Origin: Bacteroidales bacterium
GTDB taxonomy: Bacteria; Bacteroidota; Bacteroidia; Bacteroidales; UBA932
DNA: 64,000 bases
Direction of reading: 5' to 3'
NCBI GenBank assembly: GCA_017474265.1
Contig: JAFVHZ010000103.1
Coordinates: 614 to 64,613, forward strand
The notes beneath the pieces were generated by a model. It saw only the letters and a program-made list of their open reading frames with translations, ran no database searches and was not told the origin of the DNA. Both the position numbers and the translations under genes were made by a program. This document shows, piece by piece, positions 3,018 to 15,385 of the stretch (the stretch's first letter is position 1; every line of letters starts with the position of its first letter).

Positions 3018-3442
3018 TGGCAATGGAACTCGAGGGCAGGATTGTCCGCAAACTCAATGTCCAGACAGGAACCTCAGCAAGAGGTGCCTGGGCTAAGCAG
3101 GAATTCATTTTCGAGTATCAGGAAGGCAGTTATCCCTCTCAGGTATGCATGAATGTCTGGGGCGAGGATAAGGTCAAGGATCTTGAGAAGTATCAGATCG
3201 GTGACAAGGTGAAGATTGCCTTTAATCTCAGCAGCCGCGAATACAATGGACGTTGGTATACGGATGTCAGGGCATGGAGAATAGAGCCGGTAGCGGCCCA
3301 GCAGCAGGATTATGCTGCAGGTGCTGTGGCGGGTGGAGCCGGATATGTGGGAACTCCCGCTCCTGCTCCGGCACCTGAATATGACTATGCTGCTTCTGCC
3401 GGAAGTTATGCCGCTCCGCTTGAAGACGACCTTCCGTTCTGA
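3017..3442 (+). CDS. DUF3127 family (SSB-like OB-fold) protein
   Basis: WAKQEF...SREYNGRWYTDVRAWRI with an acidic C-terminal tail DDLPF. Confidence 0.85.
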   Translation: MAMELEGRIVRKLNVQTGTSARGAWAKQEFIFEYQEGSYPSQVCMNVWGEDKVKDLEKYQIGDKVKIAFNLSSREYNGRWYTDVRAWRIEPVAAQQQDYAAGAVAGGAGYVGTPAPAPAPEYDYAASAGSYAAPLEDDLPF

Positions 3443-9381: not shown

Positions 9382-10755
9382 ATGATAAAGACCAGTTACT
9401 ATAAGGATCTGACGAAGATGAACACCTTCGGAATGAAGGTGAAGGCGAGGTGTTTCATGGAGTATGATTCCGTGGCGGACCTTGTGGATATCGAGTTTGC
9501 GGAACTGGCCCGTCCGGTGCTTCATATCGGCGGGGGCAGCAATCTTCTGTTTACCGATGATTTCAAGGGTACTGTCCTGCATTCGAAGATCAACTTCATT
9601 GAAATATTGGACGAGTGCCAATGTACTCCAGTGGCCCCCTCCCACTCCGTGGGCCCCTCCCCCTACCCGGGGGTGGGAAAATGCCACTTCCGCACAAATG
9701 GCACGTCGTCCGAAGATGTCGATTCTTCGGATTCAGGACATGAAAACGCACCGGAGGTTGTGCTGGTGTCAGTAGGTGCGGGAGTCGTATTCGATGATTT
9801 CTGCGACTGGGCGGCGAAGGAAGGATTGTGGGGTGTGGAGAACCTTTCGTATATTCCTGGAGAGGTGGGTGCTTCTGCCGTGCAGAATATCGGTGCCTAT
9901 GGCGTTGAGGTGAAGGATGTGATCCATAGGGTTTATTGCTACGATACTGTTGAGGAAGAGTTTGTGAATTTCGATGTTTCCGAATGTGATTACGGTTATC
10001 GTCATTCCATTTTCAAGACTCCGGAGGTCAAGGGCAGGTATATCGTGACTCATGTGGTGTTTGCACTGTCGCGTGAGCCGAGGCCACGGCTCGATTACGG
10101 GCATCTGCGTGATGCGGTCTTGTCGGCTTTGCCTGCTGACAGCATCACGGAAACTGAATCCCTCCCATCGCGGGGCGATGGTCCCCTCCCGTTCACGAGG
10201 CCATGGGCGGCCACGGTTTCCGCTGATGCCGCTCAGCAGGCAAAGCCTACGATAGAGGGCACTCCTACCCATTCTGATACGTCCTCCGACCGTCATTTCG
10301 AGCAGAGCGTTAGCGGAGACGAGAAATCTTTGACTAAAGTGTTGACGCCGGCGTTGATCAGGAAGGTGATAATCAGGATCAGGAAGGAGAAGCTGCCGGA
10401 GCCGTCTGTTGTGGGCAGTGCGGGAAGTTTCTTCAAGAATCCGGTGGTGTCTGCCGAGCATTTTGCCCGTATCGAGGCTGCTGCGAAGGCGGAGCATGGC
10501 ACGGATTATAATGTGCCGCATTATGATTTGCTAGGCGGAGCGGTCAAGATTCCGGCTGCATGGATGATAGAGCAGTGCGGATGGAAGGGTCGCAGGAGCG
10601 GAGGGGCTGCGGTGTGGGAAAAGCAGCCGCTGGTTATCGTCAATTATACCGGCGAGGCCTATCCTGAAGAGATCGTCGGCCTTGAGAAGCGTATCATTGC
10701 CTCCGTCAAGGCTAAGTTCGGTGTCGAACTGCATCCGGAAGTGGAACATGTCTAG
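9382..10755 (+). CDS. murB: UDP-N-acetylenolpyruvoylglucosamine reductase carrying two large in-frame insertions
   Basis: NTFGM, GGGSNLL, ENLSYIPGEVGASAVQNIGAYG, YGYRHSIFK, GSAGSFFKNP, AAWMIEQCGWKG and LHPEV motifs. At 457 aa it is far longer than the usual ~340 aa. Confidence 0.95.
   Translation: MIKTSYYKDLTKMNTFGMKVKARCFMEYDSVADLVDIEFAELARPVLHIGGGSNLLFTDDFKGTVLHSKINFIEILDECQCTPVAPSHSVGPSPYPGVGKCHFRTNGTSSEDVDSSDSGHENAPEVVLVSVGAGVVFDDFCDWAAKEGLWGVENLSYIPGEVGASAVQNIGAYGVEVKDVIHRVYCYDTVEEEFVNFDVSECDYGYRHSIFKTPEVKGRYIVTHVVFALSREPRPRLDYGHLRDAVLSALPADSITETESLPSRGDGPLPFTRPWAATVSADAAQQAKPTIEGTPTHSDTSSDRHFEQSVSGDEKSLTKVLTPALIRKVIIRIRKEKLPEPSVVGSAGSFFKNPVVSAEHFARIEAAAKAEHGTDYNVPHYDLLGGAVKIPAAWMIEQCGWKGRRSGGAAVWEKQPLVIVNYTGEAYPEEIVGLEKRIIASVKAKFGVELHPEVEHV
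9607..9713. repeat. Branched palindromic element (family B, copy 1), in frame inside murB
   Basis: Arms GGACGA-GTGCCA..AGTGGC / GCCACT..TGGCAC-G-TCGTCC enclose the head CCCCTC-CCAC-TCC-GTGG-GCCCCT-CCCCC-TACCC-GGGGGTG. Confidence 0.8.
10125..10247. repeat. Branched palindromic element (family B, copy 2), in frame inside murB
   Basis: Perfect 15-bp arms GGCTTTGCCTGCTGA/TCAGCAGGCAAAGCC plus inner GCATCA-CGGAAACTG/CGGTTTCCG-C-TGATGC. Head CCCTC-CCATCGC-GGG-GCGATGG-TCCCCTCCC. Length 123 bp = 41 codons. Confidence 0.82.
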
Positions 10756-10892: not shown

Positions 10893-11645
10893 ATGGAATA
10901 CGATGTTTTCATAAGTTGTTCAAGCAAGTACCAGAGGTTTGTTGAGGCGATGTGTGCCTGCTTTGTCCTGAATATCAAGGGGGTCGAGTATCCTATGGTA
11001 TTCGTCGAGGGCGGCACCTTCGATATGGGAGCCACCTCGGAGCAGGGCAGTGATGCGTGGTCGAATGAGGAACCTGTTCATGAGGTTACTTTGAGCAGTT
11101 ACCATATAGGAAAGTATGAAGTGACCCAGGATCTTTGGGAAGCAGTGATGGGCAGCAACCCGAGCAGTTTCACGGGAGTGCGCAGGCCGGTGGAGGGAGT
11201 TTCATGGGACGACTGTCAGGAGTTCATCCGCAAGTTGAACTCACTCACCGGACAGAACTTCCGTCTTCCGACAGAGGCTGAATGGGAGTTCGCTGCCAGA
11301 GGAGGCAAGAGCAATGGCTATAAGTATAGTGGCAGCAGCATGATCGATGATGTGGCATGGTACGATGACAATAGCGGTTATACCACACACAATGTCGGAA
11401 CAAAGTCACCCAATGAACTTGGTATCTATGATATGAGCGGTAATGTATGGGAATGGTGCAATGACTGGTCTGGGGAATACAGAAGTTCTTCTCAAACCGA
11501 TCCGAAAGGTCCGGACAGCGGGTCCCTTCGCGTCCTCCGTGGCGGCAGTTGGGGTAGCCTGGCGGGGTACTGCCGTGTCTCCTTCCGTTTCGACAACGCT
11601 CCGGATTACCGCTACGGCAACCTCGGCCTTCGTCTCTGTCTTTAG
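10893..11645 (+). CDS. Formylglycine-generating-enzyme (SUMF1/CLec-fold) domain protein with N-terminal TIR remnant; candidate DGR target
   Basis: FGE-sulfatase motifs GGTFDMG, YEVTQ, RPVEGVSWDDC, RLPTEAEWEFAARGG, NELGIYDMSGNVWEWC, RVLRGGSW, GLRL. The N-terminus YDVFISCSS resembles the first TIR strand. Confidence 0.88.
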   Translation: MEYDVFISCSSKYQRFVEAMCACFVLNIKGVEYPMVFVEGGTFDMGATSEQGSDAWSNEEPVHEVTLSSYHIGKYEVTQDLWEAVMGSNPSSFTGVRRPVEGVSWDDCQEFIRKLNSLTGQNFRLPTEAEWEFAARGGKSNGYKYSGSSMIDDVAWYDDNSGYTTHNVGTKSPNELGIYDMSGNVWEWCNDWSGEYRSSSQTDPKGPDSGSLRVLRGGSWGSLAGYCRVSFRFDNAPDYRYGNLGLRLCL

Positions 11646-11714
11646 TTCTTCCTTCAGAAAACACATGACATCCAGGAAAATCCAAAATTTACAAGATAAA
11701 CGAAACAAGAATAT

Positions 11715-13028
11715 ATGAGTTCATTTATAGTAGAGGGCGGGCATAGGCTCAGCGGAACGATAAGGCCACAGGGGGCCAAGAATGAGGCGCTGCAGATCAT
11801 CAGTGCGGTGCTTCTGACGAAAGAGGAAGTCAGGATTTCCAATATTCCGGAGATTCTGGACATCAAGAACCTCATACTCCTTCTGGAAGGGATGGGTGTG
11901 AAGGTGACCCGTCACGACAAGGGAGTCTATACGTTCAAGGCTGATGAGATCGATACCGATTACGTCATGAGCCCGGACTTCGTGTCGAAATGTGCCAAAC
12001 TCCGTGGGTCAGTGATGGTGGTGGGACCTCTTCTGGCACGCTTCGGCAAGGCATATTTTCCAAAGCCGGGCGGAGATCAGATCGGTCGCCGCAGGGTAGA
12101 TACGCATATTCTCGGATTCATGAATCTCGGTGCAGAGCAGGAGTATGATACCAACAGAAAGGCTTTCTATCTGCATGTTCCTGAAGGAAGGACTCTTGAA
12201 GGAAAGTACATGCTTCTTGATGAGGCGTCCGTGACAGGAACCGCTAACATTGTGATGGCAGCATGTCTGGCAAAGGGAGAGACGACAATATATAATGCAG
12301 CCTGCGAGCCGTACCTCCAGCAACTCTGCCGTATGCTTGTCAGGATGGGTGCAAAGATAGAAGGCATCGGCTCTAACCTTTTGAAGATCACTGGCGTGGA
12401 AGTCCTTGGAGGAACAGAACATACGATTCTTCCGGATATGATCGAGATCGGATCGTTCATAGCGCTGGCAGCAATGAACCGCAGTTCGATAACCATCAAG
12501 GATGTGGCCTACGATGAACTGGGAATGATTCCGGAGGCCTTCCGCAGACTAGGTATCAATCTCGAGCGCAGAGGGGATGACATCTTCATTCCTGAGCAGG
12601 AAAGTTATGTGATAGACTCATTCCTTGACGGGTCCATACTGCATGTGGCGGATGCTCCATGGCCGGGACTTTCTCCTGACCTTCTGAGTGTGATGCTTGT
12701 GACTGCCACCCAGTGCAGGGGCAGCGTGCTGATTCATCAGAAGATGTTCGAAAGCCGCCTCTTCTTTGTGGACAAACTCATTGACATGGGGGCCCAAATC
12801 ATTCTTTGCGATCCGCACAGGGCTGTAGTCATAGGCCATGATCACAGATATCAGTTGCGTGCCGGAAACATGGCCTCTCCGGATATCCGTGCAGGTATCG
12901 CTCTGCTTATCGCAGCCATGTCGGCAAAAGGCACGAGCGTGATAAGCAATATCGAGCAGATAGACCGCGGATATGAGGATATCGACATACGTCTCAACGC
13001 CCTCGGTGCAAAAATAACAAGACAATAA
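11715..13028 (+). CDS. murA: UDP-N-acetylglucosamine 1-carboxyvinyltransferase
   Basis: GAKNEAL, PGGDQIGRR (Asp in place of the usual Cys, as is common in Bacteroidetes), SVTGTANI, DIRAG, IDRGYE. Confidence 0.96.
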   Translation: MSSFIVEGGHRLSGTIRPQGAKNEALQIISAVLLTKEEVRISNIPEILDIKNLILLLEGMGVKVTRHDKGVYTFKADEIDTDYVMSPDFVSKCAKLRGSVMVVGPLLARFGKAYFPKPGGDQIGRRRVDTHILGFMNLGAEQEYDTNRKAFYLHVPEGRTLEGKYMLLDEASVTGTANIVMAACLAKGETTIYNAACEPYLQQLCRMLVRMGAKIEGIGSNLLKITGVEVLGGTEHTILPDMIEIGSFIALAAMNRSSITIKDVAYDELGMIPEAFRRLGINLERRGDDIFIPEQESYVIDSFLDGSILHVADAPWPGLSPDLLSVMLVTATQCRGSVLIHQKMFESRLFFVDKLIDMGAQIILCDPHRAVVIGHDHRYQLRAGNMASPDIRAGIALLIAAMSAKGTSVISNIEQIDRGYEDIDIRLNALGAKITRQ

Positions 13029-13091: not shown

Positions 13092-14177
13092 ATGGGAAAT
13101 ATTTCTGTCAACATCACTGAACTGAGACATCTTCTTGATGTCACACCGGCCTCTCACAACATCATGCTGGTGGGTAATCACGGTATCGGAAAGTCCGAGA
13201 TCCTGACATCTTTCTTTTCGGCGAAAGGTCTACCTGTAACGGTTCTTTTCCTTGGTCAGATGAGCGATCCTGGCGATATAATAGGCCTTCCTTCCAAGGA
13301 TGAGGCCACCGGAAAGACCGTGTTCATGCCGCCGTACTGGTTCCCTACAGACGGGAAGCCTATAGTCCTTTTCCTCGACGAACTGAACCGTGCCCGTCCC
13401 GAGATACTTCAGACGGTCATGGATCTTGCCCTCAACCGCAAACTTGCCGGAAGGAGACTTCCGGAGGGAAGCCGTATCATAGCGGCTGTGAATCAGGGAG
13501 ACCAGTACCAGTTGACCGATCTTGACCCGGCGCTTGTGTCCAGATTCAATATCGTGAATTTCAAGCCGACAGTGGCAGAGTGGCTTCTGTGGGCTCAGAA
13601 GGAGGGCGTGGACCAGCGTGTGATAGACTTCATCAGTGCCAACAGACTCTGGCTTGACAAGGATCCTGATGCAAAGGCAGGAGAAGATACCGGTCTTGAC
13701 AAGACTCCTGACCGCAGGGCTTGGAAGAGAGTGTCCGACGTGATTGTAAGGTCCCATAAACTTACTGCGTCTGACGGCAAGGTCATTGCGAGCATTGTGG
13801 GAGGAAAGGCTGCGTCAATGTTCCTTGCCAGCATTTCATCAAAGAAGATACTTTCAGGAGAAGAGGTGCTTCAGCGTTTTGCCGACCAGAAGGTGCAGAA
13901 TGAACTGAAATCATACCAACTCCATCAGTTGTCATCTGTCAATGAGGATGTGTACAGATATCTTGAGGTCGGCAACATCCCTTTGTCGTCAATTCCTACG
14001 GTGAGCCTTAATCTGGAGGCGTATTTCCGTTTTCTGACGAAGGAAAAGAAGGAGGCCGCAGCGCATTTCGCGAACATATATATACAGCAGACCTATCCTA
14101 AGGCAATCTATTTCATCGCAAGAGAGAGCCGTAGGATGACGACCCTGATGGTTGATTATATAAAGAACATCAAGTGA
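13092..14177 (+). CDS. MoxR/dynein-related AAA+ ATPase
   Basis: Walker A GNHGIGKS, Walker B LFLDELNRA, AAVN sensor and DPALVSRF arginine finger. Confidence 0.85.
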   Translation: MGNISVNITELRHLLDVTPASHNIMLVGNHGIGKSEILTSFFSAKGLPVTVLFLGQMSDPGDIIGLPSKDEATGKTVFMPPYWFPTDGKPIVLFLDELNRARPEILQTVMDLALNRKLAGRRLPEGSRIIAAVNQGDQYQLTDLDPALVSRFNIVNFKPTVAEWLLWAQKEGVDQRVIDFISANRLWLDKDPDAKAGEDTGLDKTPDRRAWKRVSDVIVRSHKLTASDGKVIASIVGGKAASMFLASISSKKILSGEEVLQRFADQKVQNELKSYQLHQLSSVNEDVYRYLEVGNIPLSSIPTVSLNLEAYFRFLTKEKKEAAAHFANIYIQQTYPKAIYFIARESRRMTTLMVDYIKNIK

Positions 14178-15385
14178 TCATGAAGGACAGGATAGAAAAG
14201 ATGTATGAAAGGTGGTTCATAATGGAACCGCCTCTTTTTCAGGTCCTGTGCCTTCACGAACTATGCGAGGAAACGCAGATGAAATGTGCCCTGCGCTGCG
14301 GCAGGAGAAGGCTGGAGTACAATCCTGCGTTGGTAGCATCCATGACGGATGCGCAGTTGGAGGAGGCGGTGAAGGCGGAGGCGATAAGAATGCTCCTGAA
14401 GCATCCGTATGACAGGGTCCCTGATCATTGCTGCATGCTTGCGGCGGCACTCGGAAGCAATGTTACCATATCGGACAATTATGCTTTCCATAATATTCCG
14501 ATGGAGAAGCCCGCGGATTTCAGACTCCCTCCGGAGCAGTATTATGAATGGTATTCGATGAAGATTCAGGAACTCTTGCCAAAGAAGGACCTGGAAGATA
14601 CTGAAAGCGGCACAGACGGTCAGTCAGCGGAGGCCGATGGCGATGGTGCTGGTGCTGGGGATGACAATGATACGGACGTAATGCCGTCTGATGAAAGGCA
14701 TGCTGACAAGCGTGGTGAGGAATTGATGAGCCTGGCGGAATTGTGGGAAGAAGACGAGTTCATGGTGAGTCAGATAAACCATGTGATCGAATCTGTCAGG
14801 GAATGGGGCAGTCTGCCGGGAAGTCTGAAACAGATCCTGAAGGCTTCCCTCAAAGCGAGGATAAACTGGAGGAACGTACTGGCCGGATTCAGGGCCAGCG
14901 TCCTGTCGTCCCATAGGAAACTGACCAGGATGAGACCCAACAGAAGGACAGGTTTTGCAGCAATGGGAAGTGTCAGGAAGTTCAATACCAGGCTTCTGAT
15001 CGCCGTGGATGTGTCCGGGTCTATAAGTGATGCGTCGTTGTCCAACTTCTTCGGAGTGGTGAACAGTGCTTTCAGATATGGCTTCGAGTCTGTCGATGTG
15101 CTTCAGTTCGATGATGGCATCCAGGGGGTGATGAGCCTGAACAAAGCGATTAAGAAGGTTGCTGTCCAGGGACGGGGCGGCACTTCGTTTCAGGAGCCCG
15201 TGGATTATGCCCATAAGCATGGATATGATGGGCTTGTCATCCTTACGGATGGCTGTGCGCAGAAGCCCGAGATTCCATTTGGCATGAGGACGAAGATCTT
15301 GTGGGCATGTGTCGACCGCAATGCCTATGAAGAGCATCGGGAGTGGATGGCAGGAATCGGACGTGTATGTGTAATTCAGATATGA
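14174..15385 (+). CDS. DUF2201-type protein: degenerate metallopeptidase-like N-domain plus C-terminal vWA domain
   Basis: MIDAS motif DVSGS, GRGGTSF and ILTDG; RPNRR motif; acidic linker. Overlaps the ATPase stop (GTGA); alternative ATG at 14180. Confidence 0.82.
   Translation: MIMKDRIEKMYERWFIMEPPLFQVLCLHELCEETQMKCALRCGRRRLEYNPALVASMTDAQLEEAVKAEAIRMLLKHPYDRVPDHCCMLAAALGSNVTISDNYAFHNIPMEKPADFRLPPEQYYEWYSMKIQELLPKKDLEDTESGTDGQSAEADGDGAGAGDDNDTDVMPSDERHADKRGEELMSLAELWEEDEFMVSQINHVIESVREWGSLPGSLKQILKASLKARINWRNVLAGFRASVLSSHRKLTRMRPNRRTGFAAMGSVRKFNTRLLIAVDVSGSISDASLSNFFGVVNSAFRYGFESVDVLQFDDGIQGVMSLNKAIKKVAVQGRGGTSFQEPVDYAHKHGYDGLVILTDGCAQKPEIPFGMRTKILWACVDRNAYEEHREWMAGIGRVCVIQI

Follow-up and report, generated by a model that had tools for sequence, protein, structure and literature searches.

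The C-terminal tip of a 250-aa protein encoded between murB and murA in a gut Bacteroidales genome is very probably a fixed relic of writing by a diversity-generating retroelement (DGR), not the tip of an actively hypermutating receptor. A fixed relic is the favoured reading because the searches gave no matching template and the tip does not vary among the public samples that were checked. The first-pass annotation of the window (the whole 64,000-nucleotide stretch that was analysed) proposed that the gene is or was hypermutated in trans. The past tense is well supported by homology to template repeats (TRs) and by hypervariability across the family. The present tense is unsupported, given a constant tip and negative searches for a cognate TR. 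The features of the window that bear on this are listed here by position.

9382..10755, + strand: murB, upstream boundary of a variable islet (Pfam MurB_C and FAD_binding_4)
10893..11645, + strand: FGE-sulfatase/C-type-lectin-fold gene, 250 aa, with a TIR stub, an FGE domain and a C-terminal variable region (ORF, Pfam)
10893..10961, + strand: TIR remnant, first 23 codons (MEYDVFISCSS...; alignment to P0016)
10962..11519, + strand: invariant FGE/CLec scaffold (75-84% identity to TIR-FGE homologues; dN/dS 0.23 against the sister lineage)
11520..11642, + strand: probable relic DGR variable region (VR), 41 codons (composition, TR alignment, family hypervariability, constancy)
11646..11675, + strand: conserved post-stop 3' flank, about 25-30 nt (TTCTTCCTTCAGAAAACACATGACA...; flank comparison)
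11715..13028, + strand: murA, downstream boundary of the islet (Pfam EPSP_synthase, E 2e-62)

Domain architecture of the protein

The protein has the formylglycine-generating enzyme (FGE) fold and is predicted not to be a catalytic FGE. The FGE-sulfatase domain (Pfam PF03781) covers residues 35-248 with an E-value of 9e-50, scoring 170.1 bits against a cut-off of 23.3 and spanning profile positions 5-253 of 255. This agrees with the first-pass annotation, which placed an FGE-type gene between murB and murA. Among PDB entries the top match is TvpA (2Y3C, E 2e-44), while true FGEs score about 1e-24. FGE catalysis needs both active-site cysteines. In a HMMER alignment S222 lies opposite the first catalytic Cys of the FGE 6MUJ, and of the active-site pair (LC..SYC in 6MUJ) only the second, C227, is retained. 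No signal peptide was seen in the protein on inspection by eye.

The closest full-length relatives carry an N-terminal effector domain that the 250-aa protein has mostly lost. They are of the type represented by P0016 (72-78% identical), which has TIR_2 at 5-97, SEC-C at 152-166 and FGE-sulfatase at 197-411. The 250-aa protein aligns to P0016 in two blocks, residues 1-12 with 1-12 and residues 24-250 with 186-413, and the gene is therefore an internal-deletion derivative in which some 23 residues from the beginning of the TIR domain remain. The Pfam TIR profile has no match in the 250-aa protein, and the P0016 homologue has the whole domain. A 281-aa allele in a sister lineage also has a reduced TIR domain, with only TIR_2 profile positions 1-31 left (about 32 residues).

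In metagenomes, unitigs are interrupted at 11427-11469. These breaks arise because many metagenome paralogues share YDMSGNVWEW, and they are not a property of the locus.

Homology to template repeats

The last 41 codons of the gene align with the TRs of DGRs in related genomes, and they differ from them mainly at the Asn codons of the template. A protein search of 40 relatives returned full-length homologues and, in addition, short matches to residues 205-250 only. The short matches lie in short or interrupted frames, and four of them are TRs (in G026, G038, G039 and G034). A fifth FGE-type TR, accompanied by a reverse transcriptase (RT) and an accessory gene, occurs in G337, a member of the window's genus. 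A textbook example is the DGR on contig C68 of G026, which has two FGE-type targets, a TR that translates to GSNRVLRGGSWNNNARNCRVSNRNNNNPDNRNNNNGFRLIL, an HRDC-type accessory gene and an RT. All but one of its TR/VR mismatches fall at template adenines, and an inverted repeat lies 3' of the VR in the target. Like the DGR on contig C1 of G337, it has an HRDC accessory gene and a TR that aligns codon for codon with 11520-11642. At the protein level the tip and the G026 TR are identical in 23 of 26 non-Asn columns, while 13 of the 15 Asn columns have changed. The template-Asn columns correspond to residues 212, 221-223, 226, 231, 233-236, 239 and 241-244 of the 250-aa protein. The three non-Asn differences include R (AGG) to G (GGG).

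The same columns vary throughout the family. The best 120 database hits share the scaffold GSxRVxRGGSWxxxAxxCRVSxRxxxxPxxRxxxxGLRLxL, and the pattern of constant and variable columns is maintained in all of them. In a set of 18 homologues whose scaffolds are 72-84% identical to that of the protein, the 24 constant VR columns agree at 19-23 positions, and the 15 variable columns at only 1-8. In homologues that are 75-84% identical, the differences lie almost only at the 15 template-Asn columns. Collinear homology to TRs, with differences concentrated at AAY codons, marks the tip as a probable historical DGR variable region. TR homology, the family pattern and the match to TvpA therefore indicate that the structural part of the first-pass proposal was right, namely a DGR-type VR on a non-catalytic lectin-fold domain.

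The FGE-type targets of the G026 and G337 DGRs, with scaffolds 65-69% identical to the 250-aa protein, differ from it in their setting. They are lipoproteins that adjoin the TR and RT, and their tails end GFRLIL or GFRVVLIP. The 250-aa gene, in contrast, belongs to a ...GLRLCL subclass with N-terminal TIR domains, and a TR of this subclass was found nowhere among the collections searched.

Base composition of the tip

Adenine is depleted in the tip outside the variable codons, and the variable codons retain the third base of an AAY template. Codons 210-250 (11520-11642), which translate to GSLRVLRGGSWGSLAGYCRVSFRFDNAPDYRYGNLGLRLCL, contain 11 A in 123 nt, with 4, 7 and 0 at codon positions 1, 2 and 3. 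The A-poor tip without third-position A that was described in the first pass is confirmed by these counts. The 627 nt of the gene that lie upstream of the tip have A at 26.5% of all positions and at 15% of third positions. As a background, 14,918 non-overlapping 41-codon windows were taken from ORFs of at least 250 aa in the same assembly. Two of these windows have 11 or fewer A, 17 have no third-position A, and none combines both features. A sliding scan with slightly looser limits gave two stretches that could be placed in identified genes, the tip itself and the VR of a DGR on contig C243; the remaining matches are apparently off-frame or antisense reading frames, as judged by eye only. An earlier count of 14 template-Asn positions, 13 of them NNC or NNT, has to be corrected. 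Relative to the G026 TR there are 15 Asn columns, of which 14 have NNC or NNT codons and one has CTG; two of the codons are still AAC.

An origin without any DGR is extremely unlikely. It would require that amino-acid constraints on the FGE C-terminus, together with positive selection on the binding site, produced the same appearance. The RGGSW...R...GFR motif is indeed universal in FGE-fold proteins, and many of its codons are those for G, R, L, S and W. However, amino-acid composition alone cannot give the absence of third-position A, which is found in so few of the background windows, and the C or T of an AAY template is kept in 14 of the 15 variable codons. The variable columns also coincide exactly with the Asn codons of real TRs in relatives, and the protein is far nearer to TvpA than to catalytic FGEs. 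The assembly has an FGE paralogue on contig C105 in which the FGE domain is internal and a C-terminal tip of this kind is lacking. The paralogue was rejected as a carrier of the VR on this ground, and it also counts against an origin without a DGR.

Searches for a cognate template

Searches of the source genome did not reveal a TR for this tip. The assembly consists of 297 contigs and is 72% complete. A blastn search of it with 11480-11680 gave only the locus itself and chance matches of 14-17 nt, and the adenine-differing copy beside an RT that the first pass had suggested looking for elsewhere in the genome was not found in this 72%-complete assembly. An ungapped scan of all 297 contigs, on both strands and with four query lengths, forgave every mismatch at a genomic adenine. 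It returned only A-rich chance matches, the best of which has 32 non-A mismatches in 126 nt. Within the window, a search for an RT, Avd or TR was negative, as the first reading had reported.

The only RT in the assembly is on C243, a 10.6-kb phage-like contig, next to a bAvd gene. The DGR on this contig (locus L007; G000 contig C243:482-4216) has these parts.

about 100-290: end of the VR
515-874: bAvd
937-2496: RT
about 1080-1270: TR

The TR/VR repeat is roughly 185 nt long, and all of its mismatches but one are at template adenines. The TR encodes a different lectin type (...NYWCAVPNSAANGRYLNFNSGNVNPLNNNNRANGFSVRAVR) and has nothing in common with the 11520-11642 VR or the 3' end of that VR. 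The 3' end of the C243 repeat is likewise unrelated to 11520-11642, which counts against the C243 DGR as the writer of the tip. This DGR appears to be intact, with a lectin-type target tip that ends ...GFSVRAVR, and a putative lysozyme-like ORF starts at 3314.

Wider searches gave further VRs and no cognate TR. A VR pattern of 33 fixed bases matched only the VR of a sister species among 185,579 species genomes (roe-deer MAG JAFURF010000073), and it had no match in IMG/VR and the JGI metagenomes. In the sister-species MAG itself the VR was present and a cognate TR was not found. A pattern made of the VR end and the 3' flank was run against genome, viral and metagenome collections, yielding two further VR ends, four chance marine matches and no TR. 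The TR-start pattern R-G-G-S/C-W-N-N was scanned in 400 genus genomes with the reversed pattern as a control. It detected one real TR, of a different subclass (G337), and one chance match, against two matches for the control, and thus no cognate TR was found with it in the 400 genomes. Compared with the VR, the five TRs known from relatives have 22-31 differences among about 90 non-adenine positions (22-25 among about 89 for the G026 and G337 TRs), so no known TR of a relative is cognate to the VR. The genome G054 (77% complete), in which the islet carries full-length TIR-FGE and TIR-Lcl_C genes, was rejected as a source of the TR; it has no detected RT or TR, and only a broken VR fragment on contig C47. 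The first-pass annotation had named the lack of a TR or RT in this genome and its relatives as evidence that would count against it. The cognate TR was indeed not found, but relatives do have RTs and FGE-type TRs.

Because the assembly is 72% complete, a cognate TR or RT could belong to the sequence that it lacks or to a mobile element left out of the bin. The tip might then be an active remote target, rewritten rarely or conditionally in trans by a DGR on the chromosome, a phage or a conjugative element. Non-phage DGRs are documented to have targets at distances above 100 kb from the RT (PMC5758913; PMC10907252), about 28% of the genome is missing from the assembly, and an FGE-type DGR is present in one member of the genus, G337. 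Even so, present-day rewriting is very improbable. No search gave a cognate TR, the C243 TR is unrelated, and the MAG of the sister species has the VR only. Nor was a hairpin detected 3' of the VR, where the G026 target has an inverted repeat; the fold of the flank is no better than that of shuffled sequences (z 0.48, for the window only). The constancy of the tip, described below, provides the other arguments against rewriting.

Constancy of the tip across samples and lineages

The tip is constant in public samples. The 90% cluster of the protein and the neighbouring cluster together contain 23 distinct sequences and only two complete VR haplotypes, ...FDNAPDYRYGNL... and ...FDLSPDYRYGTL.... 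One sequence, P0125 (246 aa), departs in its last 12 residues only and looks truncated or frameshifted. The exact 250-aa protein is recorded on 14 contigs (P0121). At least 91% of the 31-mers of the locus are present in 19 runs from seven animal-gut studies, sheep included. VR-spanning contigs from four runs, each from a different study, are identical to the window; X2, X16 and X18 match exactly, and X19 has one additional strain with two third-position changes in the VR. The runs were compared as assembled contigs, in which minor variants within samples are hidden, so these data are compatible with rare diversification inside a population. Strain-level variation had been predicted at the template-Asn columns. 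In the contigs of the four studies and the 23 sequences, no variation is concentrated there, so the reading of active hypermutation fails.

Comparison with the sister lineage suggests that the tip stopped being rewritten before the two lineages separated. The 281-aa allele occupies the same position between murB and murA. Between the 250-aa and 281-aa lineages dS is 0.227 for murA and 0.198 for the FGE scaffold, so the gene was in place before the split. The VR has a dS of 0.065 and a dN of 0.057. The two VR haplotypes differ by seven bases (AACG>TTGT, A>C and two synonymous third-position changes), and 12 of the 15 variable residues are common to both lineages. Full-length homing would re-randomise all 15, which argues against rewriting since a split at dS of about 0.2. 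All three amino-acid differences lie at template-Asn columns, and the sole two AAC codons that remained are affected by two of these differences. This placement favours an active remote target. These differences could hint at residual adenine-directed change, but one of the base changes is G>T and two are synonymous third-position changes.

Two further observations concern exchange between the lineages. Alleles P0001, P0135 and P0138 are mosaic, a sign that the 250-aa and 281-aa lineages have recombined. A run of 95 nt, 11500-11594, shows no difference between the lineages; it is twice the length of any other identical run between them, and about 8% of sites differ in the remainder of the gene.

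Selection on the scaffold and proposed history

Selection on the scaffold is relaxed yet purifying, with a dN/dS of 0.23 (558 nt) compared with 0.055 for murA. Whether the gene is a decaying pseudogene is a separate question from whether its tip is a relic. Some features would suit a gene left functionless by the loss of the TIR domain and the DGR, with erasure pending. Its effector domain is mostly deleted, and differently in the two alleles, which retain 23 and about 32 TIR residues. Its dN/dS is four times the murA value, and G054 C47 has a broken fragment of a VR from this family. Decay is nevertheless unlikely. The reading frame has stayed intact in the 23 distinct sequences, which come from many samples, and the dN/dS of the scaffold at a dS of 0.20 indicates purifying selection. 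Short CLec-only targets are also normal in the family, an example being a 262-aa target in G026 (PMC5758913). Given the purifying selection on its lectin-fold domain, the gene most likely persists as a binding protein.

The favoured history, that of a fixed relic, would start from a TIR-SEC-C-FGE(CLec) protein, a member of a family with DGR-written ligand-binding tips, whose gene would have been vertically inherited and cut down. The last 41 codons would earlier have been copied from an AAC-rich TR by adenine-mutagenic reverse transcription. After such copying, 13 of the 15 template-Asn columns would encode residues other than Asn, 14 of the 15 would have C or T as the third base, and A would be scarce elsewhere. 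The cognate TR and RT would afterwards have passed beyond detection, with only ordinary point substitution and allele recombination acting on the tip. An internal deletion removed the TIR effector domain. The lectin-fold domain that is left is most likely kept as a binding protein that lacks catalytic activity and has a single fixed specificity, and it presumably still binds a ligand. We infer that this copy or its direct ancestor was rewritten, either in trans at this locus or before arrival there.

The murB-murA interval and the post-stop flank

The interval between murB and murA is a variable islet in the genus, which is empty in some species and carries TIR-lectin genes in others. In many genus genomes murB and murA directly abut with gaps of 15-70 nt, for example in G066, G013, G075, G008, G060, G047 and G082. 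Elsewhere the interval has the following cargo.

G002 (L043:488-1489): TIR + Lcl_C gene
G063: SPFH-like (Band 7-like) lipoprotein, judged from sequence only
L050:944-4386: TIR, then TIR-SEC-C-FGE, then KAP/ATPase_2 gene
L051:3754-9212 and L055:6570-8870 (G054): TIR-FGE or TIR-Lcl_C, TIR-AAA, TIR-SEC-C-FGE, Band 7, GH31

No RT is present in the murB-murA loci of G002, G063, L050, L051 and G054. By eye, the TIR domain of the FGE forms closely resembles that of the Lcl_C forms; if so, one TIR module has been joined to different lectin-type heads.

The genes that border the interval have features of their own. MurB of the window is 457 aa long, compared with 421 aa in L051 and 400 aa in G054, and it has long inserts unmatched by Pfam between FAD_binding_4 (125-187) and MurB_C (326-456). 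After murA, at 13092-15385, are an AAA_5 (MoxR-like) ATPase gene and a DUF2201_N/DUF2201 gene. The AAA_5 and DUF2201 genes follow murA in every related locus examined (L035, L038 and L051, and partly in L050) and are outside the variable islet.

A conserved flank directly follows the stop codon of TIR-FGE genes, including those at other positions and in other species (L035, L050, L051 twice, G054 C9, the G054 C47 fragment, L068 and L069). Its consensus is TTCTTCCT.CAGAAA..CATGACA, and what lies downstream of it differs between genes; L055 and L058 were among the loci compared. The fragment on G054 C47 (about 13853-13936, L058) is an isolated 3' end of a TIR-FGE VR followed by the same flank. 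Since its reading frame is not intact, it represents a decayed copy of this cassette at another place in the sister genome. The flank may be what remains of an element for DGR target recognition, or it may act as a terminator or a recombination handle.

The islet might also be a dedicated site for intracellular TIR-lectin sensors (TIR-FGE, TIR-Lcl_C and TIR-AAA). Their tips would have been written once in trans by a DGR from a passing phage or mobile element and then fixed by selection, with the flank allowing a foreign DGR to find the genes. The TIR-less copy would have been retained to bind the same ligand on its own, to regulate or to serve as a decoy. This reading, taken as a whole with these details, is doubtful.

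Comparison with known systems

The elements of this case have precedents, and their combination is particular to it. FGE-type remote targets, TIR-fused CLec/FGE variable domains and incomplete DGR loci are already in print. TvpA-type FGE variable proteins have a non-catalytic binding role and include remote targets (PMC5758913). CLec/FGE variable domains fused to N-terminal effectors, TIR among them, are known (Dore et al. 2024, PMC10907252; Kaur et al. 2020, PMC7159879), and incomplete DGR loci as well as remote targets have been described (PMC10907252). The TIR deletion, the murB-murA islet and the dating of the freeze from two alleles are particular to the present gene.

The closest protein of solved structure is TvpA of Treponema denticola (2Y3C), the classic example of an FGE-type DGR variable protein, whose ...RVLRGGSW....YC.V..R....P..R...LGFRL tail aligns with that of the 250-aa protein. 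The two differ in that TvpA has a cognate TR and RT in its own genome and is counted as a live target, whereas no TR was found here and the tip is constant. TvpA is also an exported lipoprotein, whereas the 250-aa protein begins with a TIR stub. A second likeness is to the antigen sensors of conflict systems (PMC10907252; PMC7159879). The full-length relatives of the 250-aa protein have the architecture TIR-SEC-C-FGE and are found beside TIR-AAA and KAP/ATPase_2 genes. However, those sensors come from multicellular bacteria and their diversification has been measured. The 250-aa gene is from a gut Bacteroidales, its product lacks a TIR or NTPase domain, and no diversification was seen.

Implications

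Composition alone can detect a DGR-written tip, as the scan flagged the one real DGR VR of the genome and this tip. Such a footprint carries no information on whether the DGR is active at present. The gene is best annotated as a predicted non-catalytic binding protein of the FGE/CLec fold and a relic DGR target, and not as a formylglycine-generating enzyme. Its context is the more useful lead, because the murB-murA pair brackets a TIR-lectin islet in a genus of ruminant-gut Bacteroidales. The islet has hypervariable tips with no retroelement nearby, and it is a tractable place for asking about DGR-written immunity sensors outside multicellular bacteria.
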